Below, piece after piece: positions 17,321 through 61,751 of a stretch of DNA of 64,000 nucleotides. The notes beneath the pieces are model-generated. The model was not told the DNA's origin. It saw nothing but the letters and a program-made list of their open reading frames with translations, and searched no databases. Within the stretch, counting starts at the first letter, position 1. Each line of letters starts with the position of its first letter. The stretch is from a virus, in IMG/VR virus record IMGVR_UViG_3300047462_000185, positions 32,001-96,000 of that record. The stretch is one strand, 5' to 3'. A program made the translations under genes and the position numbers.

Positions 17321-17688
17321 CAGATGCCTCCACGTCGGTTGGCCGACATGGTCTGCCAGGCGTCACACAGCATCCGGGACGCCTCGCGCCTGGCGCGCAA
17401 CGTCTCGAACCGAGCTGTGGCGCTGGCGTGCTCCTTGACCGCGTTCTGGTATTGGGAGCTGGCGCGCGCCTCCCACTTCTTCGCGTCGGCGGACCGCTCC
17501 TCGGACATGCCGGCGGCCAGGGCCTCGATCGAGCCGATCATGAATTCGGTGCGCACCATCTCGCCGCGCGCCGCGCCGACCTCCTCGGCGGACAGGGCGA
17601 GGAAGTTGAGCGCTTCCTCGACCTGGTTCTCGGTGACGAAGGCGCGGCCCGGCGGTTCCCGCCGGCGCGCGTTGTTGTCGTGCGACAT
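17320..17688 (-). CDS. Hypothetical coiled-coil protein
   Basis: Clean ORF inside the recombination operon. Confidence 0.6.
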   Translation of the reverse strand: MSHDNNARRREPPGRAFVTENQVEEALNFLALSAEEVGAARGEMVRTEFMIGSIEALAAGMSEERSADAKKWEARASSQYQNAVKEHASATARFETLRARREASRMLCDAWQTMSANRRGGI

Positions 17689-17697
17689 GGGCGATCC

Positions 17698-18291: not shown

Positions 18292-18297
18292 CTCCGG

Positions 18298-19113
18298 TTA
18301 CTCCGCCGCCGCTTGGTGTTCAGGCTGATCCGCGGGCGGCTCGCGATGCCACGTCTCGCGGTAGGTCGTGGTGACGAACGCCAGGGTCGCGGGCGACATC
18401 TTGCCGCGCAACTCGACATCATCGAGCCAGAACTTGTCCGCCTCGGCCGGGTCGGCCGCGTTCTTCAGCGCGGAGTTGAATGCGGCGACGAGCTTTCTGA
18501 ACGTCGCATCTTCCTTCGTTGCACTCGGCGGCGCAGAGGCCGGCGTGCGACCCGTGGGGCGGCGCGTCTCCTGCGGTGGCTCGGGCTGCTGCTGCTGCGC
18601 CATGTCGCGCTCGAGGGCGGCACGCTCGGCATCGTAGTCGCGGAAATGGTTGCCCTCGAAGATGTTGGCGTCGTCGTCCTCGTCACTGGCAAGGCAGAGG
18701 ATCGTGTTCACGCTGTAGCGGCGCATATAGGTCAGCTGCGAGCCAAACGCCTGCGGACCGCCACCCTCTTCCAGCGGCATTTCGCAGCTGATCCACTGGC
18801 CGCTCTTGTGAATGATGCGCGTGGTCAGCCACGGGCGCGGCTCGTAGGTGATGACCTGGATCACGGCCAGACCCGCATTCGCCATAGGGGCGCGGATCGT
18901 GTTCATGATGCTGCCGAGCGTGGCATACTTGAACTTGTAGGAGCCGCTCGACTTCGATCTGACCTCGACCTCGCGGTCGCGGGGCGGGTTCTGCACCTCT
19001 CCCTGGAACTGGACCAGGGCGGCATAGATTTCGACGATCTCTGCGCTCTCACGGCGGATCGGGGCAGGCACAACTTGCGCCGGCGGGGCCGACAGGATCG
19101 ATGCGTCGCTCAT
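18298..19113 (-). CDS. ERF family ssDNA-annealing protein
   Basis: KYATL..HKSGQWI..QAFGSQLTYMRRYS..EDDDAN. Confidence 0.9.
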   Translation of the reverse strand: MSDASILSAPPAQVVPAPIRRESAEIVEIYAALVQFQGEVQNPPRDREVEVRSKSSGSYKFKYATLGSIMNTIRAPMANAGLAVIQVITYEPRPWLTTRIIHKSGQWISCEMPLEEGGGPQAFGSQLTYMRRYSVNTILCLASDEDDDANIFEGNHFRDYDAERAALERDMAQQQQPEPPQETRRPTGRTPASAPPSATKEDATFRKLVAAFNSALKNAADPAEADKFWLDDVELRGKMSPATLAFVTTTYRETWHREPPADQPEHQAAAE

Positions 19114-20120
19114 TCTGCGGCCTCCTGGACCGGTTCTGCGGCCTGCTCGGCCGGTGCCTCATCGGGCATTTTGACGATGGTGACGGCGCCGTTCTTCGCC
19201 TTGCTGGCGCTGATGCCGTGGCCGAACGCGCGGCGCGCCTCCTTCGGGAAAAGCGCCTTGATGTCCTTCTTGGCGGCGTCGAGAATCTTCGCGGCCTCCT
19301 CGTGGTCGATGAACCGGTGTGCCGCATCGGCCCAGGCGTTGCTCGCCGTCATGTCGGTCTCGACCATGCTGCTTAGGTCGAGCACGGCGGGCGGCAGGTT
19401 CATCGCTTTTGGCTCGATGCCGCGCTCGACCGATTGCCAGAACCGCGCCTCGGCCTCGGCCAGTTCGGCCATATAGACCGGATCGAATTCGATGGGCTGG
19501 AGGATGTGCTTGTAGGTGCCCATCGTCATCGAGAGATAGGCGAACTCGGTGCCGGCGACCCACATGTTGTGCTGACATTGGGGCCAGAACTTTTCGATCA
19601 GCTCGGGCAGCTTCTGGAACCCCACCGCTGCCTTACACTCGACAATGCCTGTCATGCCGGCGATCGTGCTGAGCAGGAATCCGTCGAGCGAAGCGTGCCG
19701 GTGCGCCACCTTCGGATGTCGCGCCACCTCGCCGTGACGGGTGATGCGCGTCCCAGGCGCGCAGAAGCCCTGCGCCGCGGCCGCTTCCTCGGTGATGGCG
19801 AGGTTGAGACGTTCGAGCCAATGGCCGCAGCGCACCGTCAGGTCGCCCGAGATGTCATGGTGGGCGCGTTCGCCCCGCATGATCTCGGCCAGTTCGAGCA
19901 GCTTGCCCGGCTCGCCCTTGGCGATGATCCGGGCGTCCGAGCCGCCGATGCTGCGCTCGCGCTGGGCGCGCTGCTTGGGGGTGAGGCCGAGACTGGCCAG
20001 GTCGACGATACCGTCGGGCCGGAGCCCGTAATGGGGCGTCAGTGCTGCCATGACCGAGAGCAGCCGTTCGAGGGAAAGCTCCTCGCTGGCCGCGATGGCG
20101 GCCAATTCCTCATGATCCAT
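19110..20120 (-). CDS. YqaJ-like viral recombinase exonuclease
   Basis: IGGSD..ASLDG..VECK..QCQHNM. Confidence 0.85.
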   Translation of the reverse strand: MDHEELAAIAASEELSLERLLSVMAALTPHYGLRPDGIVDLASLGLTPKQRAQRERSIGGSDARIIAKGEPGKLLELAEIMRGERAHHDISGDLTVRCGHWLERLNLAITEEAAAAQGFCAPGTRITRHGEVARHPKVAHRHASLDGFLLSTIAGMTGIVECKAAVGFQKLPELIEKFWPQCQHNMWVAGTEFAYLSMTMGTYKHILQPIEFDPVYMAELAEAEARFWQSVERGIEPKAMNLPPAVLDLSSMVETDMTASNAWADAAHRFIDHEEAAKILDAAKKDIKALFPKEARRAFGHGISASKAKNGAVTIVKMPDEAPAEQAAEPVQEAAE

Positions 20121-20226
20121 TTCGCTGTCCTTGCTGGATTGGCGATAAGCTACATGGTAGTGTGTTTTCTCGTCAAGCCCGGGGGACGTGATCAAGATGC
20201 GACGCCGTCCAAACCCACTCAGCCAT

Positions 20227-20517
20227 GTGCCAGTCACGCGAGCACAGGCGATAGCGGCTCACACGGCGGGCCAGCATGCCTATGCTGCTGGCACCGAACA
20301 CGGTGCGTGCGACATCGCGAGTGTAGAGCTTAGGTGGCAATGGCAGGCCGGCTGGCGCGCCGCCGATGCAGCGTTCTGGCGCCGGCTACGCGATTGTGCT
20401 GAGCGCGGCCCGCTTCCAGGTGTTGGTCGCGGTGCGGACCTAGACATAGCTCGCGTCCCACGATCCGCCGTCGAGCCGACACACCGGATGGAGCTTCCAC
20501 CAAACTCACTTGGCTAG
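20227..20517 (+). CDS. Small protein with Rmf-like WxxGW motif
   Basis: GQHAYAAG..C..WQAGWRAA. Confidence 0.4.
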   Translation: MPVTRAQAIAAHTAGQHAYAAGTEHGACDIASVELRWQWQAGWRAADAAFWRRLRDCAERGPLPGVGRGADLDIARVPRSAVEPTHRMELPPNSLG

Positions 20518-20554
20518 AATGCGAAAAAGCCCCCCGAACAAACGGGCGGCTTTG

Positions 20555-21154
20555 TCACGCTGCGGCCGGTTCGGACTCCGCCGACACCAGGGCCGGCGGA
20601 TCGAATCTCCGCTTGCCGCGGGCCTCCGAGTGCCGGATCACCTTGCGCCGGATTTCATCGGTCAGGGCGACATATTCGTGGTGCATGCGGCCGCCGGCCA
20701 GCAGGAACGCCTCGTCGGTATAGTCCGGCTTGGGCAGGGACGAGACCCAGCCGGGTCCGCGTTCCTTGCCCCAGCGGGACACCGCAGCGGCAGTGCTGGC
20801 CCAGAGGTAGGTTTGCGCCAAGGTGTGCCCCATCGGGGACTCCATGGAGCGGCTGTGCATCACGATCATGATCTCGGTCGGGCCAACCCTGTGGCCGGGC
20901 ATTTGCCCGAACAGGATCTTGAGCCGCTCTTCGTAGATCATGGCCTTCCACTCGTTGATGAATTCGATATCGGTCCATTTGCCGAGATTGTGGAACACGA
21001 CCGGACCGAACGTGTAGCGCCGCTGATCGGCGGTGAGGATCGGCAGATCGGGACATAGGTCGTAGCTGAATTCCAGAACGCGCGGCGGCGAGCCCATGCG
21101 GGCCAGCAGCAGCAGCATCTTCTGGTTCTGGTTAGTTCCGGGTATCTCTGTCAT
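20555..21154 (-). CDS. Hypothetical protein (paralogue of 21873-22670)
   Basis: VGPTEIMIVMH..YLWAS..EIRRKVI. Confidence 0.65.
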   Translation of the reverse strand: MTEIPGTNQNQKMLLLLARMGSPPRVLEFSYDLCPDLPILTADQRRYTFGPVVFHNLGKWTDIEFINEWKAMIYEERLKILFGQMPGHRVGPTEIMIVMHSRSMESPMGHTLAQTYLWASTAAAVSRWGKERGPGWVSSLPKPDYTDEAFLLAGGRMHHEYVALTDEIRRKVIRHSEARGKRRFDPPALVSAESEPAAA

Positions 21155-21223
21155 CGGACAGGTCTCCTCAGTCCTGGCTCCATTGCCAGGGGACCGCCTA
21201 GTCGGCGGCTTCGACGTCCGATG
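21152..21223 (-). ncRNA. Hammerhead-like element H8 (type II; CUGAGGA; GUC triplet; 11 bp stem II covering the AUG)
   Basis: CAUCGGAC-GUC-GAAG-CCGCC/GGCGG-UC-C-CCUGGC/GCCAGG-A-CUGAGGA-GAC-CU-GUCCGAUG. Confidence 0.8.
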
Positions 21224-21488
21224 TGATGCGGCGCTCATCCACGGCGAGCGCGATTGCTTCCCACTCCTTGCGGAGCTGGTCGAGCTTTTCGCAGCGCCGA
21301 CGATGCTGGGCCACAGCAACTTGCATCGCGCCGGGATCCTGCACGTAATAGTCGCGGCCGTTCGGATGAACCTCCTGAAGCAATTTCTGAAGCCGATCGA
21401 TTGCGTCGAGCACTTTTATGATTGGCTCGACCAGGCCGTCGCGTGACGTGCCGTTCATGTGCAGGGTGGGGATGGCGAGCTTTGCCAT
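21198..21488 (-). CDS. Hypothetical phage protein
   Basis: PTLHMNGTS..PNGRDYY motif. Confidence 0.7.
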   Translation of the reverse strand: MAKLAIPTLHMNGTSRDGLVEPIIKVLDAIDRLQKLLQEVHPNGRDYYVQDPGAMQVAVAQHRRRCEKLDQLRKEWEAIALAVDERRITSDVEAAD

Positions 21489-21492
21489 TGCG

Positions 21493-21557
21493 GGTCTCCT
21501 CAGTCCTGGCCCAATTGCCAGGGGACCGCCGATCAAACGAGATCGGCGGGGTCGACC
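21493..21557 (-). ncRNA. Hammerhead-like element H9 (type II; GAAA changed to GACC)
   Basis: GGUC-GACC-CCGCCGAUC/GAUCGGCGG-UC-C-CCUGGC/GCCAGG-A-CUGAGGA-GACC. Confidence 0.65.
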
Positions 21558-24209: not shown

Positions 24210-25277
24210 ATGCATTCGTCGTTCAACGCCCCGGCCTGCTCTTGGGCATTTTCAATCACAGCGCCCTCGGCGCACGCAAAGCTGCTGTTGGTAGCGGTGG
24301 CTGCGCATGCGGATCAGGACGGGCTGTCGAAGGTCTCGATCACGCGGTTGGCCGAGATGACGGATATGAGCTTGCGGGGCGTTCACAACGTCCTGGCCCA
24401 ACTTGAGCGGGCACGCCTGATCGCCGGCGAGCGAGTGCCGGGCATCGTGACGGCCTACAGAATCAAATGGCGTGGCACCGCCAAGGAAATGGAGACCCCT
24501 GCACCGGATGCAGGGGTGGTTGTCGGAACTCCTGCACCGGATGCAGGGGTGGTTGTCGGAACCCCTGCACCGGATGCAGGGGTGGTTGTCGGAACCCCTG
24601 CACCGGATGCAGGGGTTCGCGCGCGCGTAGATTCTGAATCTCAGAGAGAGAAAGAAAGAAAGGAAGTAAGCAAGTCCTCAGATTCTTCTCCGCTTCGCTA
24701 CGAAGAATCTGAGACCCCCCTGCCCCCCACAGAAATTCCGACAGCGGCACAACTCGCCAAGGCTGAGATTGGCGGCAGGATGCGGGACATTTGGAACGCG
24801 GTGGTCAAGCCGTTCCCGCATTTTGCCCAGTCGAAGTGGCTCACCCCGAAGCTGCTCAATCTCGCGGTCGAGCGGTTCCAGCACGAGTTCAACCGCAGCT
24901 TCGAGCAGTGGGAAGCCTATTGCCGCAGGTTGACCAGGAACGCGTGGCTCCGCGGCGAACGTCCGGACGACAGGTCGTGGCGCCCCAGCATCGAGTGGGC
25001 CATCCAGGCCGACACGGTGCTGAAGGAGGCCGAGGGCCGCTACCCGCCCGACCCGGAGCCGAAGCCCCAGGTCGTGCAGCCGATGCACGACGTCGATCCC
25101 ACCCAGGACCCGATCTGGGGCAAGCCGAACAGGATCAAGCTCGAGATCGCGCTGGCGATGCAGCGCCCCGTGATCGACGACGCCAAGCTCCAGGAGCTGT
25201 CGCGCGACTACAAGGCGGCGCTGGTCGAGGCCAGAGCCGCCCAGGCCGCGCTGAGCGGGGCGGTGGCCCATGTCTGA
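24210..25277 (+). CDS. Replication initiator-like protein (N-terminal wHTH, internal iterons)
   Basis: AKLLLVAVAAHAD..SITRLAEMTDMSLRGV..LERARLI; GGAGG RBS; directly upstream of primase-helicase. Confidence 0.75.
   Translation: MHSSFNAPACSWAFSITAPSAHAKLLLVAVAAHADQDGLSKVSITRLAEMTDMSLRGVHNVLAQLERARLIAGERVPGIVTAYRIKWRGTAKEMETPAPDAGVVVGTPAPDAGVVVGTPAPDAGVVVGTPAPDAGVRARVDSESQREKERKEVSKSSDSSPLRYEESETPLPPTEIPTAAQLAKAEIGGRMRDIWNAVVKPFPHFAQSKWLTPKLLNLAVERFQHEFNRSFEQWEAYCRRLTRNAWLRGERPDDRSWRPSIEWAIQADTVLKEAEGRYPPDPEPKPQVVQPMHDVDPTQDPIWGKPNRIKLEIALAMQRPVIDDAKLQELSRDYKAALVEARAAQAALSGAVAHV
24495..24616. repeat. Four 33 bp iteron-like repeats (probable origin)
   Basis: ACCCCTGCACCGGATGCAGGGGTGGTTGTCGGA x3.7, each with an internal inverted repeat, followed by an A-rich tract. 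Confidence 0.75.
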
Positions 25278-35134: not shown

Positions 35135-35790
35135 GGGTCGCATGGGGTGGTTCGGGCGACCACCACACCCCCATGCCTCGCAAATGTGGGCCGAGCATGA
35201 TCCGGCTCGACGCGGCAGCGCATCATTCGTGCGCACTTCCTGGTCGCCCAAAGGGTGAAGTCCCGGTTTCAGTGTGTCGGCCGGTCCCGGGGGAACGGGT
35301 GGAACCGGCCGACCTGGTCACGCCACCGTCAGGGTCTCTTGGGCGGTGGCTACCGGGACGTGATCAGCTCCAGCAGGCCAAGGGCTGGGCGGGCGAGCGA
35401 TTGTGTTGGTTCGACACGTGTTGTCCGAACCGTGGCTTCGCGGCTGATCACGATCCACGCGCCGGCGCTTTCCGTCGTCATGGGCAAGCCCATCACCGGT
35501 GCGTTTCGGTGCGTTGGCCCGATCTGGTGACGTCCGCGCTGCCTCGGGTGACGCGGGTCGGAATCGGCTCTTGGCGGTATCTTGAGAATTGTCGAGAGAG
35601 TTGCCTGAGGTGCCGATACGTCTTCGATCGGTATCATCCTCTGATCCTGGCGTCCTTCGCCTGGACCGCTCGGTCGACGCGCCAGTGATTGGCAGCGTGT
35701 AGCACCGCTGAAGGGAGTGCGAGCGTCCTGTGGGATGATCGGCTGCTGCGCCAATGGCGCGCTGCCTGAGTGATAGATGGGGAGGCGTAT
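35135..35790. ncRNA. Candidate large structured non-coding RNA
   Basis: No credible ORF; many nested helices; G-U pairs favour the + strand. Confidence 0.5.
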
Positions 35791-35794
35791 CATT

Positions 35795-35841
35795 CCTTTC
35801 AAGGGGTGAACCCTTTCATCGGCCTGCATCGAGCAGGAAGG
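35795..35841 (-). ncRNA. Hammerhead-like element H13 (type III; core CCGAUGA; canonical C3-G8 and GAAA)
   Basis: CC-UU-CCUGC/GCAGG-CCGAUGA-AAGGG/CCCUU-GAAA-GG. Confidence 0.8.
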
Positions 35842-35855
35842 CCCGCCGGAGCGGG

Positions 35856-36213
35856 TTAGTCGGTGGGAGGCCGGTCGACGAAGACCGAGCCAACCTGCGT
35901 GTATGAGAATTTCCCGATATGCACGCTGGTGATGAAATTCACGCGCAGGCCAGCTTCATGAGCGGCTTGGATGGCTTTGTTGAGCTGATCAGACCTTTGG
36001 CGAATCAGCACTTCGTGTTCCTCGTCTGTCACGTCAGCCGTCCTTCGCGGTGATTTTCAGCTTCCAGTCGCCAACGGTGTTGCCGTTGATGTCGACGGCG
36101 TTGCCCTCCATGAGTCCGTTTTGAATCTGGTGGGAAACCTCGCGCAGTATGCGGGTCATTTCGCTTGCGCCATAGCCGTCGTTGAACGCGGCGTTGCCTG
36201 TGTCGATCTTCAT
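35856..36213 (-). CDS. Two small hypothetical proteins (35856-36032, 36034-36213; not in ORF track)
   Basis: MTDEEHEVLIRQRSDQLNKAIQAAHEAGLRV..; MKIDTGNAAF..DINGNTVG. Confidence 0.6.
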
Positions 36214-36228
36214 TCTGAATATGTGGTT

Positions 36229-36273
36229 CTCCTCAGTCCGGCGGGATGCCGGGCACCGGGTCAGCCGGTTTCG
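36229..36273 (-). ncRNA. Hammerhead-like element H14 (type II; CUGAGGA; G17)
   Basis: C-GAAA-CCGG/CCGG-UG-C-CCGGC/GCCGG-A-CUGAGGA-G. Confidence 0.7.
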
Positions 36274-36677
36274 ATTGCGTTTACGTCGGCGATACGCGCT
36301 ACGGTCTGGCGCTTGCCGTCAAGAGTCACACCTACGACGGAAGGGATAAACCCTGCCGCATCGTAGAAACGCACCACGCGGAAAATCAAAGTGGGATATC
36401 CGATCAAGGTGAAGTGGCTCATCTTTCGTCTCCTCAGTCCGGCGGGATCGCCGGGCACCGGCTAGGCCGGTTTCGTCTCAGGCCATTCGATGCCTTCCGC
36501 GACGCCTGCGAGATGATAGATGTCGCGGGGCGATACGTCAGTAGGAGCCGAAAGACGGCAAGCGTTCTGCGCGAAGGCGACCTTTGCCGCAGGCATTCCG
36601 GCTGCTGCGTTCCGGGCGAGATGCCGCAGATGTGGGTAGCGCCGCACGTAGGCGTCGAGAACTGATTGTGGGATCAT
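36261..36677 (-). CDS. Two small hypothetical proteins (36261-36422, 36462-36677)
   Basis: Each has its RBS in a type II element and its stop in the next element. Confidence 0.6.
36430..36475 (-). ncRNA. Hammerhead-like element H15 (type II; CUGAGGA; G17)
   Basis: C-GAAA-CCGGC/GCCGG-UG-C-CCGGCG/CGCCGG-A-CUGAGGA-G. Confidence 0.7.
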
Positions 36678-36683
36678 TATTTT

Positions 36684-36740
36684 CTCCTCAGTCCGGCGGG
36701 ATGCCGGGCATCCGGCCAGGTCGATCCTGGCCGGGTTTCG
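36684..36740 (-). ncRNA. Hammerhead-like element H16 (type II; CUGAGGA; G17)
   Basis: C-GAAA-C-CCGGCCAGG/CCUGGCCGG-AUG-C-CCGGC/GCCGG-A-CUGAGGA-G. Confidence 0.7.
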
Positions 36741-37421
36741 CTAAAAGGTGAAGGCGCGAATCACGGGCGCGCTGCCGTCAAGCGGCGCGTAGCACGTCCG
36801 GACCGAGGGCCGGTCGATCTGCACGGTTAGCGTCCCTGTGGGATGCGCGTTCTCCGCCTCGATCATCACCCGGGCCAGCCGGTAGATTGTCGAGCAGTTC
36901 AGCTCGTGGGCGCGCGCTTCGGTGATGGTGCCCTCCGTGGTGAAGAGCGAGACCTCGCCGCTGAGCCATCGCGTCGCTCCCTCCATAGTCAGCCCGGATG
37001 GACTGTAGTCCAGCGACCCGTAGGGGCGAGGCTGGATGGAGATGTGGGACACATGGCTCCGCTCCACCCGGGCAACGTATTGCCTGATCGGCGTGGGAGA
37101 AGCGGCGTCGGCCTGGAAGGCGCTGATACGCTCGAGCTGCAGGCAGAGCAGCTTGATGGCTGTCTGATATTCGCTGTCCTTCGGCCTTTTCTTGCCGAGA
37201 TAGCGCCAGAACGCCGGCAGGGAGCTGGTGCGCATGACGTGGTCATGGGCATACCAGAGCCCGTGGCTGATGTTCCGGGGGTCGGGTTCCTCGTTGGCGC
37301 GGCCGTCCATCTGCTGGATGAAGGTCCGCAGATGGGGGTGGGTCGGGGCCGTGGTGCCGATCGCACCGGCGCCGGCCAGGCCGCGCACGAAGTCCGACGT
37401 CATGTCGTAGAGCAAGGTCAT
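36741..37421 (-). CDS. Hypothetical protein
   Basis: Start MTLLYDM follows the GAAAGG of H17. Confidence 0.6.
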   Translation of the reverse strand: MTLLYDMTSDFVRGLAGAGAIGTTAPTHPHLRTFIQQMDGRANEEPDPRNISHGLWYAHDHVMRTSSLPAFWRYLGKKRPKDSEYQTAIKLLCLQLERISAFQADAASPTPIRQYVARVERSHVSHISIQPRPYGSLDYSPSGLTMEGATRWLSGEVSLFTTEGTITEARAHELNCSTIYRLARVMIEAENAHPTGTLTVQIDRPSVRTCYAPLDGSAPVIRAFTF

Positions 37422-37427
37422 TAGTGT

Positions 37428-37481
37428 GCCTTTCTGCCGGGAAGCGCCGGCTGATCGCGCTGGATGGGGGTCCAGCAAGGC
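37428..37481 (-). ncRNA. Hammerhead-like element H17 (type III; GCGAUCA)
   Basis: GCC-UU-GCUGGA/UCCAGC-GCGAUCA-GCCGG/CCGGC-A-GAAA-GGC. Confidence 0.7.
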
Positions 37482-37491
37482 CCCTGGTTGG

Positions 37492-37689
37492 CTAGGGGTC
37501 TTCGAGCGTCGGGCCGTCATTGTGGCTCGCCAGGATCGGCGCGCCGGTGCGATGAGCCTCTGCCATGCGGCGAGCTTGGTCGCGCGTGTAGCCCGCGCGC
37601 TCGAGCGCGAGAATGAGCGACATTTCGCTATTGTGGTCGTTCGACCATTTGTCGTTGTGCCGTCGCTCGAAGAAGTTTTCTTTGCTCAC
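37492..37689 (-). CDS. Hypothetical protein
   Basis: GTG start overlapping the upstream stop. Confidence 0.5.
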   Translation of the reverse strand: MSKENFFERRHNDKWSNDHNSEMSLILALERAGYTRDQARRMAEAHRTGAPILASHNDGPTLEDP

Positions 37690-38049
37690 GGCAGTTCGCC
37701 GGTCGGGCGGCCGAGCTTGCGCCGCAGCCGGTTGATCTGCGGCTCGTAGAGGGCGCGCGCCGCCGGCGTCGCAGCGGCTAGCTGCTCGGCGATGAACTGG
37801 CGGTCTCTTGGGCATTTGGCGAGCCTGGATGGGGCGAACCGGGTCGACATCGACCACTCACCGGGTCGACATCGACCACTCGCCCCCGATCCGCTTGCAG
37901 GCCGCCTCCGCGGCGTTCCTGGCACGATTGGCGGCCAGGTCTTCAAGGTGTGCGATCTCGGCGCGGATGCGCTGGATCACCTCGTCACGGGTCGGACCGG
38001 GCGTGGTGAGTGCAGGACCGCCGTTGTGGCCGATTTTCGATAGTGGCAT
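37686..38049 (-). pseudogene. Small gene frameshifted by a 22 bp tandem duplication
   Basis: ACCGGGTCGACATCGACCACTC twice at 37838-37881; EWSMSTR appears in both frames. Confidence 0.65.
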
Positions 38050-38051
38050 GG

Positions 38052-38112
38052 GAGGCCTTTCTGCCGGCGAAGCGGCCGGCTGGACGCGCTGCACGGTGTG
38101 CAGCAAGGCCCC
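38052..38112 (-). ncRNA. Hammerhead-like element H18 (type III; GCGUCCA)
   Basis: GGGGCC-UU-GCUGCAC/GUGCAGC-GCGUCCA-GCCGG/CCGGC-A-GAAA-GGCCUC. Confidence 0.7.
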
Positions 38113-38113
38113 G

Positions 38114-38532
38114 CTAGGCGGGGGTAGCAGGCCCCTCAGGGCGCATGGAGTTGGGATGGGTGGGCAGCTGGCACCGCTTCGTCGTGAAGCGCGCCAGGCG
38201 CCGGTTTTCGCGTCGGATGAACCGAACCGCACTGGCCAGCGCCGCGACCTGGTCGGTCGCGAAGCAGTCGAGCGTCACGTAGTTGTGGTAGCTCGGGTGC
38301 CAGAAGCGATAGGTGAACATCTGCACGGCTACGCCGTCATGATCAGCAGCTGCTCGGCGCCATAGACTGCCGCCTCGCCGCACATCTCGCACTCGCCGCC
38401 TTCCATGTCGGGCTCGCATTCCTCGGCCTCTGCGCCGCATGCGGTGCAGAAGCCGGGGCTGTCGAGACTGGTTAGGTGCCGTTCGACCGCTTTCATGATG
38501 CGGTCCGTCGTGATGGACTCATGGATCTTCAT
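38114..38532 (-). CDS. Two small hypothetical proteins (38114-38320; Zn-ribbon 38329-38532)
   Basis: Second has GFCTACG..EPD..CEMCG..VYGAE. Confidence 0.6.
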
Positions 38533-38538
38533 GGGTAT

Positions 38539-38591
38539 GCCTTTCTGCCGGTAAGCGCCGGCTGATCGCGCTGCACGGTGTGCAGCAAGGC
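38539..38591 (-). ncRNA. Hammerhead-like element H19 (type III; GCGAUCA)
   Basis: GCC-UU-GCUGCAC/GUGCAGC-GCGAUCA-GCCGG/CCGGC-A-GAAA-GGC. Confidence 0.7.
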
Positions 38592-38597
38592 GCCCGG

Positions 38598-39050
38598 TCA
38601 CGCCGGGCTTTCGGCAATCGTTTTCGGCTTGAACATGACCAGCGAGATCGCGTCGGCCGTGAGGTCGATGATCAGTTCGGTCATGTTCGGCGGATAGGTC
38701 GCGAGTGCGGCATTCAGCTCGGTGAGCAGGATATGCTCCGAGCCATCGTCGCCGCCGAACAATCTGTTCTTCGCCTCCCACCAGTCGTCGAAGTCCATCT
38801 TGGTCGGATCGCACTCGCGTGCGTAGACCACGAAGCTCTTCGTCTTTGACTGGTTCGGATCAGCGGGATCGGGCGGCACGAGCAGGCCCGGATCGCCGTT
38901 GCTCATCAGGTAGACACCAACATCGCCGACCAGCATCAAGGCAGGCTTCGGTTTGCCTTTCTTGCCGTATTGGCGGTGATGCTTCGGGGCTGCGGCGCAA
39001 TGTTCGATCAAACGTCGCACGCCTATCAGGTCGAAGTGTATCCGAGACAT
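38598..39050 (-). CDS. DUF3085-like protein
   Basis: LVGDVGVYLMSNG..VYARECDP..FGGDD. Confidence 0.75.
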   Translation of the reverse strand: MSRIHFDLIGVRRLIEHCAAAPKHHRQYGKKGKPKPALMLVGDVGVYLMSNGDPGLLVPPDPADPNQSKTKSFVVYARECDPTKMDFDDWWEAKNRLFGGDDGSEHILLTELNAALATYPPNMTELIIDLTADAISLVMFKPKTIAESPA

Positions 39051-39057
39051 GGGTTGG

Positions 39058-39110
39058 TCCTTTCTGCCGGTGAGCGCCGGCTGGACGCGCTGGACGAGGT
39101 CCAGCAAGGA
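39058..39110 (-). ncRNA. Hammerhead-like element H20 (type III; GCGUCCA)
   Basis: UCC-UU-GCUGGAC/GUCCAGC-GCGUCCA-GCCGG/CCGGC-A-GAAA-GGA (stem III covariation). Confidence 0.7.
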
Positions 39111-39113
39111 GCT

Positions 39114-39245
39114 TCACCCCTCTGCATCTGGATCAGATTGGCGAGGCGTGAAGCAAAGCACTCCGATCAGCAGGCCAGCACCTAGCCCGATTAGGCCAAG
39201 GCTGCCCCATCTGAGCAACGTGCTGATGAGGAACAAAAGAGTCAT
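39114..39245 (-). CDS. 43 aa membrane peptide
   Basis: MTLLFLISTLLRWGSLGLIGLGAGLLIGVLCF..; between H21 and H20. Confidence 0.55.
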   Translation of the reverse strand: MTLLFLISTLLRWGSLGLIGLGAGLLIGVLCFTPRQSDPDAEG

Positions 39246-39251
39246 GGGTGT

Positions 39252-39304
39252 GCCTTTCTGCCGGATAGCGCCGGCTGATCGCCCCGCATCGGATGCGGGA
39301 AGGC
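39252..39304 (-). ncRNA. Hammerhead-like element H21 (type III; GCGAUCA)
   Basis: GCC-UU-CCCGCAU/AUGCGGG-GCGAUCA-GCCGG/CCGGC-A-GAAA-GGC. Confidence 0.7.
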
Positions 39305-39310
39305 CCGCCG

Positions 39311-39790
39311 TTAGGCGGGGATAGGCTTCTCCGGCGCCAGCGGTGCATCGATCCGCAGGAACTCGTTGATGGGGTTGTGGTCCGCCTGTTCGTAGGCGCT
39401 CGTGTCGATCTCGCGCAGCTCGATGGTCTGGCTGTAGGCGACATGCCAGCACACGTGATCCTTGGAGGTCACGTGCGCGACCAGGCAGTCGAACCTGTCG
39501 CCCGGAGCCTTCGAAATGGCGGTCTCGGCGTTCATTCGGTCCACCGGATTTTCCATGTTGAGATAGCGCCAGAACATCCAGACGTGGCTGGTGCGCGAGT
39601 CGATCATTGGCCATTCCAGGCCTTCCTTGTGCTGGATGATGTCGCCGCGCTTGAAGGTCGGGACGGCCTTGTTGAACTGGGCCAGCCTGGCGCGCAGCTC
39701 GACCACCTGAGCCTCGGGAATGTCCCGATGCGTTTTCTGGTCGACCGTGCCGCGGGCCGCGCCCATCAGGTCTGAAAGTGAAAGAAGCAT
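39311..39790 (-). CDS. Hypothetical protein
   Basis: Start MLLSLSD after H22. Confidence 0.6.
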   Translation of the reverse strand: MLLSLSDLMGAARGTVDQKTHRDIPEAQVVELRARLAQFNKAVPTFKRGDIIQHKEGLEWPMIDSRTSHVWMFWRYLNMENPVDRMNAETAISKAPGDRFDCLVAHVTSKDHVCWHVAYSQTIELREIDTSAYEQADHNPINEFLRIDAPLAPEKPIPA

Positions 39791-39798
39791 GGATGTTA

Positions 39799-39851
39799 TC
39801 CTTTCTGCCGGGACGCGCCGGCTGATCGCTCCGCGGGGATCGCGGAAAGGA
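39799..39851 (-). ncRNA. Hammerhead-like element H22 (type III; GCGAUCA)
   Basis: UCC-UU-UCCGCG/CGCGGA-GCGAUCA-GCCGG/CCGGC-A-GAAA-GGA. Confidence 0.7.
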
Positions 39852-39891
39852 ATGAGCCGCCCCACCCGATTTGGGCAGGGCGGCTCGTTGG

Positions 39892-40699
39892 TCAGATACT
39901 CGGCTCGGGCCGCTCCTCGATCACGACATTGCCGAGATCGATGGCGGGGCTGGGAGCCTCGCGGGTGAACATCGCCTTGGCACGGCGCATGCCGGCCTGG
40001 CTGGCGGTGCTCAGCTTGCTCATCCCGGTCGTGGCGCAGCGGTGGGCCTGGTAGGCGCCATATGCGGCGACACCGATCGTGCCGCAGATCACCACCACGG
40101 CGGCGAGAGCCTGGACGCCTTGAAGGGCCCCTTCACGGAGCATGGGAGCGGCGGCGCGGCCCACGTTGACCATGACGGGAACGGCGGGACGGATGATGGA
40201 CTGGAGCATGGGGTGTTCTCCTTGGGATTTCGCCGGAAGCGCCGGCTGAACGCCCTCAGCTGAGCTGAGGGATCCCGGACCGCGCCACTTGTGGCGCAGC
40301 CCTCGCGCGGGGGCGTTCGCATCGCTGCGGCCCGCACGACCTAGGGATTGATCAGGCATTGACGACTTGTTGCAGCACGCCGCGCAGCTGGTCGCGATGA
40401 GGGGTCAGCAGTTCGGCAGTCGCCAGAATCTGCAGCCCCGTCGCGAAGCAGTTGCGTGACCGTGTGATCGTGTCGAGATGATCAGGGGGGAAGTCTGTCC
40501 CGACCAGGGCCAGGATGATCATCTCGTTGCGGCGCCGGCGCCGGGCCATGCCGATCCGGATCCGCTGTATCAGGTCTTTGCCTTCGTCGTAGAGCAGCTG
40601 GTATCCGGCCGAGAGGGTAATGCCGCCGACCAGGGCGCCGAGCGCAACCGCGCCGCGCCTCAGGAAGGGCCGGGCCAATGCTGTGGACATGGGGGTCAT
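39892..40699 (-). CDS. Two hypothetical proteins with single TM segments (39892-40209, 40352-40699)
   Basis: Each has an AAGGAG RBS immediately after H23 or H24. Confidence 0.6.
40224..40276 (-). ncRNA. Hammerhead-like element H23 (type III; GCGUUCA; AUC triplet, exact canonical spacing)
   Basis: GGGA-UC-CCUCAGC/GCUGAGG-GCGUUCA-GCCGG/CCGGC-GAAA-UCCC. Confidence 0.75.
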
Positions 40700-40710
40700 G
40701 CGTCTCTCCT

Positions 40711-40767
40711 TGGTGTTTCGACCGGTCGGACCGGCCCTTATCGAGGGTCAAACGTGACCCGAAACCA
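40711..40767 (-). ncRNA. Hammerhead-like element H24 (type III; UCGAUAA, U3-A8)
   Basis: UGGU-U-UC-GGGUCA/UGACCC-UCGAUAA-GG-GCCGGU/ACCGGU-C-GAAA-C-ACCA. Confidence 0.7.
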
Positions 40768-40871
40768 CAGCGAGACTCATGTTTACACAGATATATGTGG
40801 TTTGAAAAAGAAGAATTTCAAGACCCGAAACGATTTCCGCCCCGACTGCCGAGGTTCGCCTGTGGGGTTGG

Positions 40872-40916
40872 TCCCACCCGCGTCGCGGGTTCGCGCCTGA
40901 AGCGCTCGTCGGGGGA
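40872..40916 (-). ncRNA. Hammerhead-like element H25 (type I; CCGACGA; C15.1-G16.1)
   Basis: UCCC-CCGACGA-GCGC/GCGC-GAA-CCCGC/GCGGG-U-GGGA. Confidence 0.75.
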
Positions 40917-40931
40917 TCTGGGTGGCGGCCC

Positions 40932-41159
40932 TCAATGGATCTCGTATCGCTCGATCATGAGCCAGCCGCCGCATCTCTGGGGCTTGCAGGTGCAGGCGCC
41001 AGGGACGGCGATCATTTCGACCGAGCCGTCTGGGCAGGACAGGATGCAGCCACGTGGCGTGGTGTGGACGTGGTAGCCGCACCCCTCGTAGTGGCGGGCC
41101 GACATGTTGATGAACTGGTCGAGCGAGACGACCTTCTTGGGTCTCTGGCGCGCAGCCAT
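40932..41159 (-). CDS. Small Cys-rich protein
   Basis: GGAG RBS; several Cys. Confidence 0.55.
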   Translation of the reverse strand: MAARQRPKKVVSLDQFINMSARHYEGCGYHVHTTPRGCILSCPDGSVEMIAVPGACTCKPQRCGGWLMIERYEIH

Positions 41160-41199
41160 TGATGCTTCTCCGTGTCGTGAGGCGCGGGGATCCACGCCT

Positions 41200-41243
41200 T
41201 CCCGCCCGGCTCAGCCGGGTTCGCCTTGCGGCTCATCAGGGGA
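41200..41243 (-). ncRNA. Hammerhead-like element H26 (type I; canonical CUGAUGA; C15.1-G16.1)
   Basis: UCCC-CUGAUGA-GCC-GCAA-GGC-GAA-CCCGGC/GCCGGG-C-GGGA. Confidence 0.8.
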
Positions 41244-41856
41244 TTTTTTCGGCACGAAAGATTTCATGCCGCCGTCGTTTTCGATCTGATGGTGATTTTT
41301 CAGCGTATCGGACAGCAATCTGGCGACGCTGCCTGAACTGAGAAAGCCGATGATTTGCTTCTGATCGACGCCTAACTTGGCGACGCACTCGTTGTAGATT
41401 TCCATCGGCGAGAAGTTGCGATAATCCTGCGTGAGTTCGACGCGCACCAGCGCATAGATGACGTTGGTCCCGTCGCTCAGCAGGGTTTTGATCGTATTGG
41501 GCATATCTGACATGGGGATCTCCTTATGTTGGTCCCGCCCGGCCTAGCCGGGTTCGCCCTTGGCGGGCTCGTCTGGGGATTTGGGACGGCTAACGAACAT
41601 CGCGGTGCTCAGCTTGCTCGGTCATTGGCATGTTGCGCATAATGCCGAGCAGGATATTACGAGCTGCGGATGAGTTCATCGTCGTGATAACGGTCTCGGT
41701 CGACAACCTAGCGTGGCGCACCACGTCGGACTTTATCTCATCCGGCGCGTAGTTCTTGAGCGAATAGGGAAGCTCGAACCGCACCAGGGCATAGCCCACC
41801 TTCGGTCCGTCTAGCTCGGCCATCTGCTTGATTATTGCCATCGGGTGCATTGGCAT
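41211..41856 (-). CDS. Two paralogous small proteins (41211-41513, 41590-41856)
   Basis: IYALVRVEL..NFSPMEI vs GYALVRFEL..NYAPDEI. Confidence 0.6.
41533..41579 (-). ncRNA. Hammerhead-like element H27 (type I; CAGACGA)
   Basis: UCCC-CAGACGA-GCCC/GGGC-GAA-CCCGGC/GCCGGG-C-GGGA. Confidence 0.75.
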
Positions 41857-41893
41857 GGGGATTTCCTTCTGCTGAAGCACATATTGATGTGCT

Positions 41894-41945
41894 TTCCCGC
41901 CCGCACACAAGCGGGTTCGCGCCTATGCGGCGCTCGTCTGGGGAA
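41894..41945 (-). ncRNA. Hammerhead-like element H28 (type I; CAGACGA)
   Basis: UUCCC-CAGACGA-GCGCC/GGCGC-GAA-CCCGC/GCGGG-C-GGGAA. Confidence 0.75.
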
Positions 41946-43000
41946 GCTCGGCCAGCATCTGGGGTGAAAGGCGCAGGTTGGCGTGGGGACGCCGCGCCGC
42001 CTCTTGGCAGGCCATGTAGCCGATTGCCTGGCGAATCTTCTGCGCCGCGGCGTGAACCGTGCCGTCATAGGCCGGTTTCGTCACCACGGGCACAGACCAA
42101 CCGGCCACCTTGTGCAGGCCGCATTGGAGAGCGCCGCCGGCATGCAAGCTCTGAATCGCCGTCTCGAAGGCTTTCACCTCGTGGGGCTGGACCACGGCGC
42201 AGAACCGTAGCTCGGCCGTGGTGTAGGTCTGGCGCTGGTTGATCGCCATAGCAAGCAGGACGCGCCGCTCCATTGGATCGGTGAACATGGGAATCTCCTA
42301 TTTGGTTGGTCCCACCCGCCGCAGCGGGTTCGCGCCGTCAGGCGCTCGTCTGGGGAAGGAACTGGTCGGCCGGCGCCGCGCTGTCGCGGATCGCCTCGGC
42401 GATCGCGGCCGTCACCTCGTCTCGATCGGGCCGGAACGGCCGGTGATCGAGGGTCAGGTCGGCCGAGACGCGGATCACGGCGGCGCGCCGAACAGAGCAG
42501 GGCCAGCTGGACAGTGTCATGCGGAACATGGGGATATGCCTTTCTGCCGGGAAGCGCCGGCTGATCGCGCTGGATGGGGGTCCAGCAAGGCGCCCGCGCT
42601 AGGCGGGCTCCAGGACATGCTCCTGGGCAGGAACGGTTGGCCTGGTGGTGAGAGGCGTGCCATCGGGGTGCTCGCCCCACGCCTTCAGGCGCTCGATCGC
42701 GAGATCGAACATCTTCAGCACGGCCGGGTGGCCATACACGTCGTTCAGGTGAATGACGCTTAAGGCTCCTGGCTCAACCGCTCTCACGACCGAGGTCAGG
42801 GTCGGTGTGCCGCGCTCACCGTCGAGCTCGGCATTTTGGCTGACGAAGCGACAGGCCCCGATGGCGCACCACCGGACCGCGTTCGCCTGCAAAGCGAACG
42901 CGGATTCGCCCGAAGCATCGCGTGCCGCGGCAAACCGGCAATACCGATTTGGATCGCTGATCAGCGCCCGCGCCGCGACATACATCTCGAATTCGGTCAT
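41923..43000 (-). CDS. Three hypothetical proteins (41923-42288, 42338-42529, 42599-43000)
   Basis: Each is bounded by hammerhead-like elements; last has an RWCAIGA..ND motif. Confidence 0.6.
42310..42356 (-). ncRNA. Hammerhead-like element H29 (type I; CAGACGA)
   Basis: UCCC-CAGACGA-GCGCC/GGCGC-GAA-CCCGC/GCGGG-U-GGGA. Confidence 0.75.
42538..42591 (-). ncRNA. Hammerhead-like element H30 (type III; GCGAUCA; identical to H17)
   Basis: Same 54 nt sequence as 37428-37481. Confidence 0.7.
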
Positions 43001-44458: not shown

Positions 44459-47035
44459 ATGAACCTGCCGGATGGTGTGGCCGAGATCAGGGACACGCTG
44501 CTCGCCAACGAGATCGCGATCCAGCGCGAGCTGGGCCGGCGCTCGTTCTACGACTTCTACAAGATGGCGTGGCCCGAGCTCGATCCGGCCCCGTTCGTCG
44601 ACAATTGGCACATCGGGCTGATCTGCGACGAGTTACAGGCCGCGGCGCGCCGCGAGGTGCTGAACCTGTGTATTGCAATTCCGCCAAGGCACAGCAAGCC
44701 TGTGCATGAGGATGAGCCGGTTCTCACTGCCCGAGGACGTATTTCATTGCGCGAAGTGGTGGTGGGCGATTTCGTTCTGACCCACATGGGACGCTTTCGG
44801 CGAGTCGAGGCGGTTCACATCCAGGGCGAGTTGCCTACGCTCACGGTGCGCGCCTGGTCAGGTCGCGCTGCCCGTATGGCACCTGACCATCCTCTGCTGA
44901 CGGCGCGTGGGTGGGTGCAAGCCCAGCATTTGGTTGCGGGTGACAGGGCAGCGGTCGCACGCATCGATGAGCAATGTGGGCAGGATACCGTCTCGGCCGA
45001 GGAGGCGCGACTTCTGGGCTATCTGGTGGGTGATGGATCATGCACTCACTCGGCAATCAACATCACAGCTCTAGATGAGACTGAAATTGCCGATATCCAG
45101 GCATGCGCCAACACCCTCGGGATCGGGACGTCCATCACACGCAAAACAAAGACCGCAGCGGTCAAAGTCGGATTACTCAATGACAGACTGAAAAACCGAT
45201 GCGGTGCTGCGCATCAGCTTATCGATCGTGCTGGCCTCACGGGCAAGAATAGCTACACGAAGCGAGCTCCGCCTTCGATTATGGCCGCAACGCAGCGCAT
45301 CATCGCCGAATTCCTGGCCGCCTACTGGGCCTGCGATGGGTATATCGCGAAACGGGGCTTCCTAAAGGACGGTAGAATTCGAACTGATGTCTGTGTCGGT
45401 TGCGACACGGTCAGCCGAGAGTTGGCGCTCGATGTCCAGCATTTGCTTTATCGGCTGGGCGTAAACTCTCGCGTCAGGACGAAGGTAGCGAAGATCAAGA
45501 CTAGGAAACAGGGTAGCGACACTTACACATCGTATTCCGTCTCGATGACGTCAGCTGATGATGTCGCGCGTTTTGCGTCGGCGGTCACAATTCCGCACGC
45601 CAAGCAAGCTCTCCTTGACCGACATAAGGGGCGCACAGACTTCGATAGGCCGCTCTGGCGCGATGAGATTGTGGCAATCGAGCAGAGTGAACCCGCGCCA
45701 TGTCGATGCCTGACGGTTGATGAGGATCAAAGCTTCACCGCAGGCGACCTGGTGGTCCACAACAGCCTGCTCTGCTCCGTGGCGTTCCCGGCCTGGGTGT
45801 GGACCTGGTGGCCCGCGGCCCGCTTCATCACGTCGAGCTACGATGTGGTGAAGCTCGCGATGCGGGACGCGCTGGCGGCGCGCCGGCTGGTGACCAGCGA
45901 CTGGTATCAGACGCGCTTCCCCGAAGTGAAGCTGGCGGCCGATCAGAACGTCAAGAGCTTCTACCAGACCACGGCGGGCGGGGCGCGGTTCGCCTGTAGC
46001 CCGACGGCCGGCCTCACCGGTCATGGCGCCGATTTCGCGATGTTCGACGACCCGCACAACGTCACGAAGGGTGAGTCCGAGAAGGATAGGGACAGGGCCA
46101 GGACGTTCTGGTTCGAGGCCATGTCGCCCCGGTTCAACAACCCGTCTCACGGGGTGCGGATCGTGGTCCAGCAGCGCGTCAACGAAGCTGACGTCGCGGG
46201 CGAGTGCATCCGGCGCGGCTATCATACAGTAGTTTTGCCGGCCCGGTTCGAGCGCGACCATCCGCAGCGCTCGCCTCGGGATCCGCGCCAGGTCGAGGGT
46301 GAGTTGCTTTGGCCCGACAAGTTCTCCGATGCGGATGTCACCAAGCTCGAAAAGGACATGGGGCAGTTTGCCGCGGCGGGCCAGCTGCAGCAGCGTCCCG
46401 TGCCGCGCGAGGGTGGGCTGTTCAAGCGCCACTGGTTCGAGATCGTGGACGCGGCGCCGGCGACGCAGCGCAGGGTCAGGTCGTGGGACCTGGCCGCATC
46501 CGAGAAGAAGGTCACGTCGAGCGATCCGGACTACACCGTGGGTCTGCTCATGTCGCTGTGCGACGGCGTCTACTACATCGAGGATGTGAGGCGTGACAGG
46601 CTCTCGCCGCACGGCGTCGAGCTGATGATCACGAACACGGCCAAGCAGGACGGCAAAGGGGTGAGGATCAGGTTCCCGCAGGACCCGGCCCAGGCCGGCA
46701 AGTTCCAGGTCCGCTATTACGTGACGCAGTTGGCCGGGTGGATGCTGCACATCGAGCAGGAGACCGGAGACAAGGTGACGCGTGCCGATCCGTTCTCGAG
46801 CCAGGCCGAGGTTGGGAATGTGAAGCTGGTCAAGGGCGCATGGAACGAGGATTTCCTGTCGGAGATCGCGATATTTCCTGGGGGTGCGCACGACGACCAG
46901 GTCGATGCGGCGACGGGCGCGTTTCGGGCCCTGACGAGCGGCACGACGGGGATCATCGACTTCTACCGGCAGCAGATCGCGGCGCGTGACGCGGCGCGTG
47001 ACGCGGCACGGGGTCCGGGCGACGGCACACGATAG
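44459..47035 (+). CDS. terL: Terminase large subunit with intein
   Basis: PPRHSK|S Walker A, FDDPH Walker B, WDLA, HDDQVDA nuclease motifs. Confidence 0.92.
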   Translation: MNLPDGVAEIRDTLLANEIAIQRELGRRSFYDFYKMAWPELDPAPFVDNWHIGLICDELQAAARREVLNLCIAIPPRHSKPVHEDEPVLTARGRISLREVVVGDFVLTHMGRFRRVEAVHIQGELPTLTVRAWSGRAARMAPDHPLLTARGWVQAQHLVAGDRAAVARIDEQCGQDTVSAEEARLLGYLVGDGSCTHSAINITALDETEIADIQACANTLGIGTSITRKTKTAAVKVGLLNDRLKNRCGAAHQLIDRAGLTGKNSYTKRAPPSIMAATQRIIAEFLAAYWACDGYIAKRGFLKDGRIRTDVCVGCDTVSRELALDVQHLLYRLGVNSRVRTKVAKIKTRKQGSDTYTSYSVSMTSADDVARFASAVTIPHAKQALLDRHKGRTDFDRPLWRDEIVAIEQSEPAPCRCLTVDEDQSFTAGDLVVHNSLLCSVAFPAWVWTWWPAARFITSSYDVVKLAMRDALAARRLVTSDWYQTRFPEVKLAADQNVKSFYQTTAGGARFACSPTAGLTGHGADFAMFDDPHNVTKGESEKDRDRARTFWFEAMSPRFNNPSHGVRIVVQQRVNEADVAGECIRRGYHTVVLPARFERDHPQRSPRDPRQVEGELLWPDKFSDADVTKLEKDMGQFAAAGQLQQRPVPREGGLFKRHWFEIVDAAPATQRRVRSWDLAASEKKVTSSDPDYTVGLLMSLCDGVYYIEDVRRDRLSPHGVELMITNTAKQDGKGVRIRFPQDPAQAGKFQVRYYVTQLAGWMLHIEQETGDKVTRADPFSSQAEVGNVKLVKGAWNEDFLSEIAIFPGGAHDDQVDAATGAFRALTSGTTGIIDFYRQQIAARDAARDAARGPGDGTR
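44699..45763 (+). mobile_element. Intein (355 aa) with LAGLIDADG homing endonuclease, starting with Pro
   Basis: PVHEDEPVLT..DHPLLTARGW..LLGYLVGDGS..FLAAYWACDGYI..CRCLTV..VVHN|S; lower GC than exteins. Confidence 0.9.
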
Positions 47036-61394: not shown

Positions 61395-61469
61395 GGGGGC
61401 GTAGCTCAGCGGGAGAGCACTGGTCCTGCAAACCGGGTGTCGTCGGTTCGAGTCCGACCGCTTCCACCA
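61395..61469 (+). tRNA. tRNA-Ala(TGC)
   Basis: Cloverleaf, G3-U70, CCA. Confidence 0.85.
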
Positions 61470-61473
61470 CTAT

Positions 61474-61548: not shown

Positions 61549-61577
61549 TATTGCGTGTCCCGATTGGGACGATAGTT

Positions 61578-61747: not shown

Positions 61748-61751
61748 AATT

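Follow-up and report, generated by a model that had tools for sequence, protein, structure and literature searches.

The window analysed here is a 64,000-base stretch covering bases 32001-96000 of the IMG/VR phage record IMGVR_UViG_3300047462_000185 (106.6 kb, 93% complete). It carries ten minus-strand copies of an intergenic element, which we call family A and which are best read as members of a phage-restricted RNA family derived from the type III hammerhead ribozyme. The hammerhead origin of the elements is very probable. They fold into a hammerhead-shaped junction that includes the ribosome-binding site of the following gene, and in most members of the wider family loop II is complementary to core positions 3 to 5, forming a pseudoknot whose reality we consider about as probable as the hammerhead derivation. 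We propose that the element has two states, toggling between the pseudoknot and a hammerhead-like core, a model to which we give slightly less than an even chance.

Family A elements in the window

Between 35.3 and 43.0 kb, the window encodes about 20 small minus-strand genes of unassigned function, separated by repeated intergenic elements. Eighteen elements, H13 to H30, all on the minus strand, lie in 35795-42591. We scanned both strands of the window with a descriptor consisting of stem III, one base, a compact hairpin, a seven-base junction, another compact hairpin, an optional base, and the GAAA closing stem III. The strict descriptor matched nine times on the minus strand and never on the plus strand; a relaxed one added H13 and the copy at 10397, while the noise in shuffled sequence rose to about 20 matches. 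A covariance model built from nine family A copies (R1) scored these copies at 69-83 bits, the copy at 40224 at 37.6 bits, and H13 at 20.8 bits.

The architecture can be followed in H30 (42538-42591, minus strand, as all copies below; R1 79 bits), which is comprised of stem III (GCCU/AGGC), U17 at 42587, hairpin I (42569-42586), the core GCGAUCA (42562-42568), hairpin II (42546-42561) with the loop CGCUUC, an extra A, and GAA, and is followed by an ATG at 42529. The same core is found in H17 (37428-37481), H19 (38539-38591; R1 83 bits), H21 (39252-39304; upstream of a hydrophobic open reading frame, ORF, of 37 codons), and H22 (39799-39851), and, outside 35795-42591, in H2 (9892-9944; R1 77 bits) and H3 (10397-10447; looser descriptor, R1 76 bits). 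H18 (38052-38112; 6-bp stem II) and H20 (39058-39110) have the core GCGUCCA with U at position 6, and H23 (40224-40276) is a variant with the core GCGUUCA, C17, a loop II beginning with CGC, and no extra A. All copies except H3 were matched by the strict descriptor, and R1 scores all ten. The ten cores (seven GCGAUCA, two GCGUCCA, and one GCGUUCA) give the consensus GCG(A/U)(U/C)CA; position 4 is C in every copy and never U, position 6 is U in three of ten, and the extra A precedes GAAA, that is, G12, in nine of ten. The copies H17 and H30 have a 55-base identical stretch in common. A first-pass annotation of this DNA had described the G3-C8 cores and the extra A, as well as C3-G8 in H13 and U3-A8 in H24, and our analysis agrees with it on each of these points.

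The same annotation had expected family A to be missed by standard searches, and indeed no Rfam hammerhead model detects it. There was no Rfam hammerhead match at gathering score in the window, and at E<=10 the only match was a 17-bit hit of HH9 to a type-I-like copy. Over the window and the relatives described below, no hammerhead model matched any type-III-like copy with either cutoff, and these copies stay under the gathering threshold of the Rfam clan CL00010. The family A core fits neither the type III core CUGANGA nor its relaxed form CYGANGA, a published descriptor (PMC13481778) that is matched by the core of H13, CCGAUGA.

Relatives in other genomes

Sequence-level searches for further copies returned little. 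A 10-kb megablast query matched none of the phage records. In IMG/VR, one exact family A pattern produced at least 118 chance matches, and R1 scoring of 80 of the loci revealed no true copy; a second exact pattern produced none, while a pattern with free positions 3 and 8 found true copies solely in three relatives already known. A pattern scan of genome contigs yielded 102 mostly chance matches and one metagenome-assembled genome (MAG) with a real copy; terminase-based metagenome loci, mostly too short or too distant, included none with an element.

The terminase relatives G001-G005 (54-57% identity) carry many elements with the same architecture and different cores. The most common core is CAGAGA, with about 33 copies in G001, G002, G004, and the one MAG; the others are UAGAAA (twice), CAGAGU, GAGAUCA, GAGUCCA, GAGACAU, CAGAUGA, CAGACGA, CUGUUGA, and CUGACAA. 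With a further model, R2, we scanned about 300 genomes of the order and family of the MAG, scoring 36 candidates per genome. This added two more hosts, an alphaproteobacterial MAG and a prophage in G056 (G006 and G056 were the sole genomes found), with G056 contributing two GUGAUCA and six CUGANAA copies. The full set comprises 64 type-III-shaped elements from seven phage, prophage, or MAG genomes. Because the family A and CAGAGA cores are misaligned by MAFFT, structures were parsed by script. There are about 30 elements per genome, representing all three hammerhead topologies; hammerhead-like elements of types I and II, in some cases with the canonical core CUGAUGA, are found in these genomes at equivalent intergenic sites.

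Fold and junction

The three-way junction is the minimum-energy fold of the elements, with z-scores from -1.6 to -3.6. The 64 copies contain 57 distinct sequences of hairpin I and 58 of hairpin II, and pairing is kept in all of them. Both the descriptor and the minimum-energy folds place three helices around a junction of the 7/3/1-base type. J1/2 has six or seven bases (six in about 37 relatives), J2/3 has three, GAA (four bases in nine of the ten family A copies), and J3/1 has one; N7 is absent in about 37 copies. GAA is constant except for one degenerate copy (GCA, G004_7608), an A15.1-U16.1 pair closes stem III in every parsed copy, and N17, in 62 parsed copies, is U in 49, A in 7, and C in 6, and never G. 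The conservation of GAAA has to be read with caution, as GAAAGG doubles as the ribosome-binding site and the two constraints are confounded.

The elements thus resemble the type III hammerhead (Rfam RF00008, clan CL00010) in the open stem III, the closed hairpins I and II, and the 7/3/1 junction strands, and also in G5, mostly A6, A9, G12-A13-A14, A15.1-U16.1, the non-G base at position 17, and, in most copies, complementary bases at positions 3 and 8. Family A departs from it in having G3-C8, C4, U6 in three of ten copies, the extra A, and complementarity between N3-G5 and loop II. We saw neither complementarity nor length coupling between hairpins I and II, although loop-loop contacts differ from one ribozyme to another and are not easily recognised in a sequence.

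The variety of hairpin sequences bears on the possibility that the elements are DNA-level repeats, acting in recombination and cassette shuffling or as protein-binding sites, with an incidental RNA fold. The elements do overlap the ends of upstream genes and constrain their C-termini, many of which read PA-stop, and the 55-base identity of two copies, together with an RNA contig that joins 37426 to 42537 across both, would suit such repeats. The contig, which makes the junction via the identical bases, could itself be a repeat assembly artefact or a recombinant or deleted form of the phage. However, compensatory changes keep three helices and the pseudoknot in 57-58 different sequences, and all copies are on the transcribed strand just 5' of start codons, with none in the plus-strand scan. 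We therefore regard a DNA-level role as highly improbable. Two other candidates were rejected. An integron attC-like site does not agree with a strand-specific three-way junction of which the ribosome-binding site is a part, and for an internal sigma-70 promoter there is no -10 box.

A probable pseudoknot between loop II and the core

Loop II begins with a triplet exactly reverse-complementary to N3-N4-G5 in 53 of the 64 copies. This holds through six core:loop combinations, CAG:CUG, GCG:CGC, GUG:CAC, GAG:CUC, CUG:CAG, and UAG:CUA. When loops were shuffled among copies, the mean number of matches was 20 and the maximum 32, and none of 20000 shuffles reached 53; with triplet classes permuted instead, the observed match was reached in 6 of 40320 cases. 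In the G3 lineage, U, A, or C at position 4 is compensated by A, U, or G, respectively, as the middle loop base (G[U/A/C]GAUCA with the loops CAC, CUC, and CGC). Hence position 4 is free to vary, since its changes are compensated by loop II in the pseudoknot. The geometry is that of an H-type pseudoknot supported by covariation, with connecting loops L1 of 3-4, L2 of 0, and L3 of 2-6 bases. It is stacked on stem II, and the crossing loop runs from A6 to A9 (3-4 bases).

The pseudoknot and the active hammerhead core exclude each other, because U4 and G5 of the U-turn are not Watson-Crick paired. The 11 copies lacking the complement mostly have the most hammerhead-like seven-base cores (H13, H24, CAGAUGA, CAGACGA, CUGUUGA). 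In most copies, N8 is identical to the loop base that pairs with N3, so that N3 has two alternative partners. We considered a base triple of N8 with the N3:loop pair and rejected it, as N8 is at the far end of stem II; given that the triple is implausible, we read the two pairings as alternative states.

Covariation of positions 3 and 8

The first-pass annotation had been concerned with the other partner of N3. As it stated, positions 3 and 8 are complementary in all 18 elements of 35795-42591 (C-G in nine, G-C in eight, U-A in one), and G5 and A9 are invariant among them. Its second U3/A8 example, H6 (UUGAAAA, ca. 11850-11920), does not belong to this set, as it lies outside 35795-42591, has a four-base J3/1, and makes a poor hammerhead. 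Moreover, the copies in the window represent only about three or four independent lineages, so that the window statistics are weak (p roughly 0.04-0.09).

The relatives provide a larger sample. Positions 3 and 8 form a Watson-Crick pair in 56 of the 64 type-III-shaped elements (C-G in 39, G-C in 14, U-A in 3). Of 18 distinct cores, 14 are complementary, a number reached in one of 20000 shuffles, although the shuffle ignores relatedness and related cores inflate the result. A G3-C8 lineage is present in at least four genomes, with the cores GUGAUCA, GAGAUCA, and GCGAUCA, the first of which is the consensus core except for the swapped 3-8 pair; UAGAAA adds a U-A case. The homologue comparison therefore upholds covariation through C-G, G-C, and U-A, but non-complementary bases, which the annotation had named, if frequent, as evidence to the contrary, do occur: the pair is broken in eight of 64 copies, seven of them CUGANAA with C·A (in G056 and G005) and one GAGACAU. 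Considering the pseudoknot counts as well, loop II, rather than N8, is the better-supported partner of N3.

Ribosome-binding site context and RNA data

Of the 64 elements, 60 are followed by a start codon, whose distance from stem III is most often 5-8 bases, and (A)GAAAGG is the Shine-Dalgarno sequence, partly paired in stem III. Most elements have a GC-rich hairpin on their upstream side. An upstream ORF is present for 60 copies, and in about 24 of these its stop codon is in or next to this hairpin, 0-9 bases from stem III. This layout is compatible with processing, the hairpins capping both new ends, or with unmasking of the ribosome-binding site by a terminating ribosome.

The second possibility can be extended to the whole element, which may be a non-catalytic relic of a hammerhead working as a translational operator or coupling device, with stem III masking the ribosome-binding site until it is opened by a terminating ribosome or a protein; in a variant of this explanation, the element could be recognised by an RNase of the host or the phage. 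The Shine-Dalgarno sequence is inside stem III and J2/3 in every copy, a stop codon 0-9 bases from stem III is within the ribosome footprint, and core positions 4, 6, 7, and 8 are relaxed, N7 often being lost altogether. Contigs of RNA that run through predicted cut sites, described below, are also as expected of a relic. On the other hand, a relic leaves unexplained that N8 follows N3 when the pair changes to G-C or U-A, that G never occurs at position 17, and that the upstream hairpin is kept even where the stop is 25-45 bases away, while the conservation of GAAA decides neither way for the reason given above. On balance, we consider a purely non-catalytic role unlikely, if worth serious attention.

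The RNA data consist of assembled contigs from four moss or plant metatranscriptome libraries of one study. Cover is uneven, with none in some bins, and reaches 30-130x over the gene at 35350-35793, just downstream of H13, as compared to 2-7x upstream of H13; because of this unevenness, we take the signal to be RNA rather than carried-over DNA. In 35350-35841, depth steps of 10-fold or more occur within about 40 bases of H13, which suggests that a promoter or a processed and stable 5' end is located there. Some contigs stop at 39835 (two runs), 40251, and 40255, which is 11-19 bases inside predicted 5' ends. Gaps in cover over elements and contig ends near elements were not used as evidence for our interpretation, given the low depth and the restriction to contigs.

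Proposed mechanism

In the two-state model, the module is comprised of a GC-rich hairpin at or just past the upstream stop, a stem III of 3-7 bp, hairpins I and II, and the start codon, with the 3' strand of stem III and J2/3 providing the Shine-Dalgarno sequence. In one state, N3-N4-G5 would pair with the first three bases of loop II, stacked on stem II, and would hold the core inactive. In the other, which excludes the first, N3 would pair with N8 in a hammerhead-like core. Cleavage after N17 would then be slow, conditional, or, in some copies, lost. The ribosome-binding site could be freed either by cleavage or by melting of the short stem III, and the flanking hairpins would cap the two RNA ends.

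A number of observations weigh against this model. The pseudoknot has only three base pairs. The lengths of stems I and II vary independently, so that a loop-loop dock is doubtful. Folding also permits C8-G12 and U7-A13 pairs that extend stem II, which would be an alternative reason for C8. Only about three or four double changes at positions 3 and 8 count as independent, and the rule is broken by one lineage or more, with eight copies as exceptions. In studied hammerheads, substitutions of U4 and changes of A6 lead to low activity (PMC9901934, PMC3088659), while C4 is present in ten of ten and U6 in three of ten family A copies, and an extra A adjoins G12 in nine of ten. Finally, contigs bridge the predicted cut sites of the copies at 42538 (cut at 42587; two runs), 39252 (39300), and 40224 (40271; two runs), and type-I-like sites at about 41537 and 42314 are bridged too. 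The bridging contigs show that uncut molecules exist at low depth; they are no measure of cleavage, which for every copy is predicted from sequence. It is somewhat unlikely that family A self-cleaves at biologically useful rates.

In view of this, the conclusion of the first-pass annotation that selection keeps the active fold appears to be at best half of the story. It is in line with the 3-8 covariation and the hammerhead junction geometry. Against it are the exceptions at positions 3 and 8, U6, the absence of U at position 4, the stronger covariation of N3-G5 with loop II, and the RNA contigs bridging three family A sites, and catalysis is at present a prediction.

The annotation's conclusion would apply most directly if family A were a constitutively self-cleaving variant with G3-C8, C4, and the extra A, in which the 3-8 pair is kept by selection and the loop II complement is incidental or a folding aid. 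The hammerhead topology with conserved G5, A9, GAA, A15.1-U16.1, and a non-G base at position 17 suits such a ribozyme, as does complementarity of positions 3 and 8 in all elements of 35795-42591 and in most of the full set. The engineered G-C swap is active (PMC9901934), a viroid U4C variant works in vivo (PMC3088659), and the hairpins on both sides of the cut site would serve a need of processed mRNAs; the contig ends inside predicted 5' ends and the depth step at H13 would fit as well. However, the covariation of the pseudoknot takes the very bases needed for the U-turn, family A tolerates U6 and seven relatives C·A at 3/8, low-depth contigs bridge three family A sites, and no Rfam hammerhead model scores any type-III-like copy. 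Taken together, this makes constitutive cleavage improbable.

A G3-C8 hammerhead lineage might instead carry the pseudoknot as a lock on positions 3-5 and cleave only when the lock opens. We hold this version only tentatively, as a rather unlikely one. If it is true, cleavage or melting of stem III would unmask the ribosome-binding site, and the element would be a switch for translation combined with mRNA punctuation, acting on about 30 genes per phage genome.

Comparison with known systems

Pseudoknot or hairpin leaders are known to control translation of phage mRNAs, an example being the operator of T4 gene 32. Similar to leaders of this type, the elements are small pseudoknotted folds that many early or accessory genes have directly 5' of their ribosome-binding sites; unlike such leaders, they have the pseudoknot inside a hammerhead-shaped junction, and no sequence relation to the leaders was seen, although no search aimed at one was made.

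Clustered hammerheads flank genes in prophages of Agrobacterium tumefaciens, Azorhizobium caulinodans, and Clostridium scindens, where they cleave polycistronic RNA (Perreault et al., 2011; PMC3088659). In our phages, too, several elements punctuate one polycistronic phage transcript, and the hosts, judging by the MAG matches, are again Alphaproteobacteria. The published clusters have consensus cores and demonstrated cleavage, whereas here there are about 30 elements per genome, of three topologies, mostly with deviant cores and with the ribosome-binding site in the fold.

Natural variants of the hammerhead core include U3-A8 covariation, U4C in a viroid, U15.1-A16.1, A6C, and core insertions, and inactive look-alikes are also known (PMC3088659). 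H24 (UCGAUAA) and UAGAAA repeat the known U3-A8 covariation, and C4 has the viroid precedent, while the loss of N7 and variation of position 4 compensated by loop II are unlike the described variants. In engineered ribozymes, the C3G/G8C double mutant is active, as the first-pass annotation had noted, and the other CUGA-turn mutants, single and double alike, all have low activity (Roberts et al., 2023; PMC9901934); the same swap is attributed to Przybilski and Hammann (2007) in PMC3884650. This swap is the same as that seen in GUGAUCA, GAGAUCA, and GCGAUCA, although the engineered constructs have an otherwise consensus core. In tertiary-stabilised ribozymes, G17 is tolerated (PMC3884650).

Our literature search found no report of a natural G3-C8 hammerhead lineage, nor of ribosome-binding sites built into prophage hammerheads. 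Should the elements prove active, they would be the first hammerheads with a G3-C8 core to come from nature, would mean that any base is possible at position 4 when compensated elsewhere, and would provide a natural case of a ribozyme that is controlled by a pseudoknot within it and coupled to a ribosome-binding site. Should they be inactive, they would represent a ribozyme scaffold put to new use as a leader for translation. In both cases, whole families derived from the hammerhead escape covariance-model and descriptor searches, and the natural variants (G[U/A/C]GAUCA, CAGAGA, UAGAAA, CUGANAA) can be used to test the rules for the 3-8 pair and the U-turn.

Other hammerhead-like elements

Besides family A, two type III elements lie on the minus strand of 35795-42591. 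H13 (35795-35841) has the family A architecture, the core CCGAUGA with C3-G8, and a loop II without complement to the core. H24 (40704-40776) has U3-A8, C17, a U·C mismatch in stem III, and no usable pseudoknot. The intergenic region 40700-40931, between a type-I-like element and H24, is unusually long (232 bases) and contains an A/T-rich stretch, which is the only low-GC spot of the gene array and may be an internal promoter.

The three type-II-like elements H14-H16 (36228-36745, minus strand) have the core CUGAGGA, which is also the Shine-Dalgarno sequence, G at position 17, and a very weak stem II. The type-II-like copies at 36228-36745 and 10737-21510 share this structure, CUGAGGA-G serving as core and Shine-Dalgarno; their status as ribozymes is doubtful because of G17 and a nearly absent stem II. 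Two type II hammerheads that are near-canonical (CUGAUGA, GAAAC) are found at L184:19717-19783 in G002, directly 5' of a start codon, and at L415:106-169 in G056; they score 25.8 and 22.8 bits, respectively, under the Rfam threshold of 37.

The five type-I-like elements H25-H29 (40870-42356, minus strand) have the cores CCGACGA, CUGAUGA, and CAGACGA (three copies), and all five have C15.1-G16.1, against the NUH/NHH rule. Type-I-like copies overlap the last codons of upstream genes, whose products end in ...PQTSA or similar, and the stop codon is in the loop of a hairpin, which is loop II in some copies and the stem III loop in others.

Genomic setting

DNA of the phage was found in moss metagenomes, and parts of it also in RNA libraries from moss or plant samples. 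Among the products encoded in the window are a large terminase with an intein, a portal protein, and an integrase, and a tRNA array of about 20 genes lies on the plus strand (61395-63924). The large terminase gene (44459-47035) is split by an intein with a LAGLIDADG homing endonuclease, while the relatives with 54-57% identity lack the intein. At a gene junction in 37838-37881, there is an exact 22-base tandem duplication (ACCGGGTCGACATCGACCACTC, twice), which may shift or split an ORF. In addition, at 24498-24620, in the minus-strand reading, we found at least three tandem 33-base units, each consisting of a perfect hairpin (CCCCUGCAUCCGGUGCAGGGG) followed by UUCCGACAACCA, which resemble iterons or binding sites.

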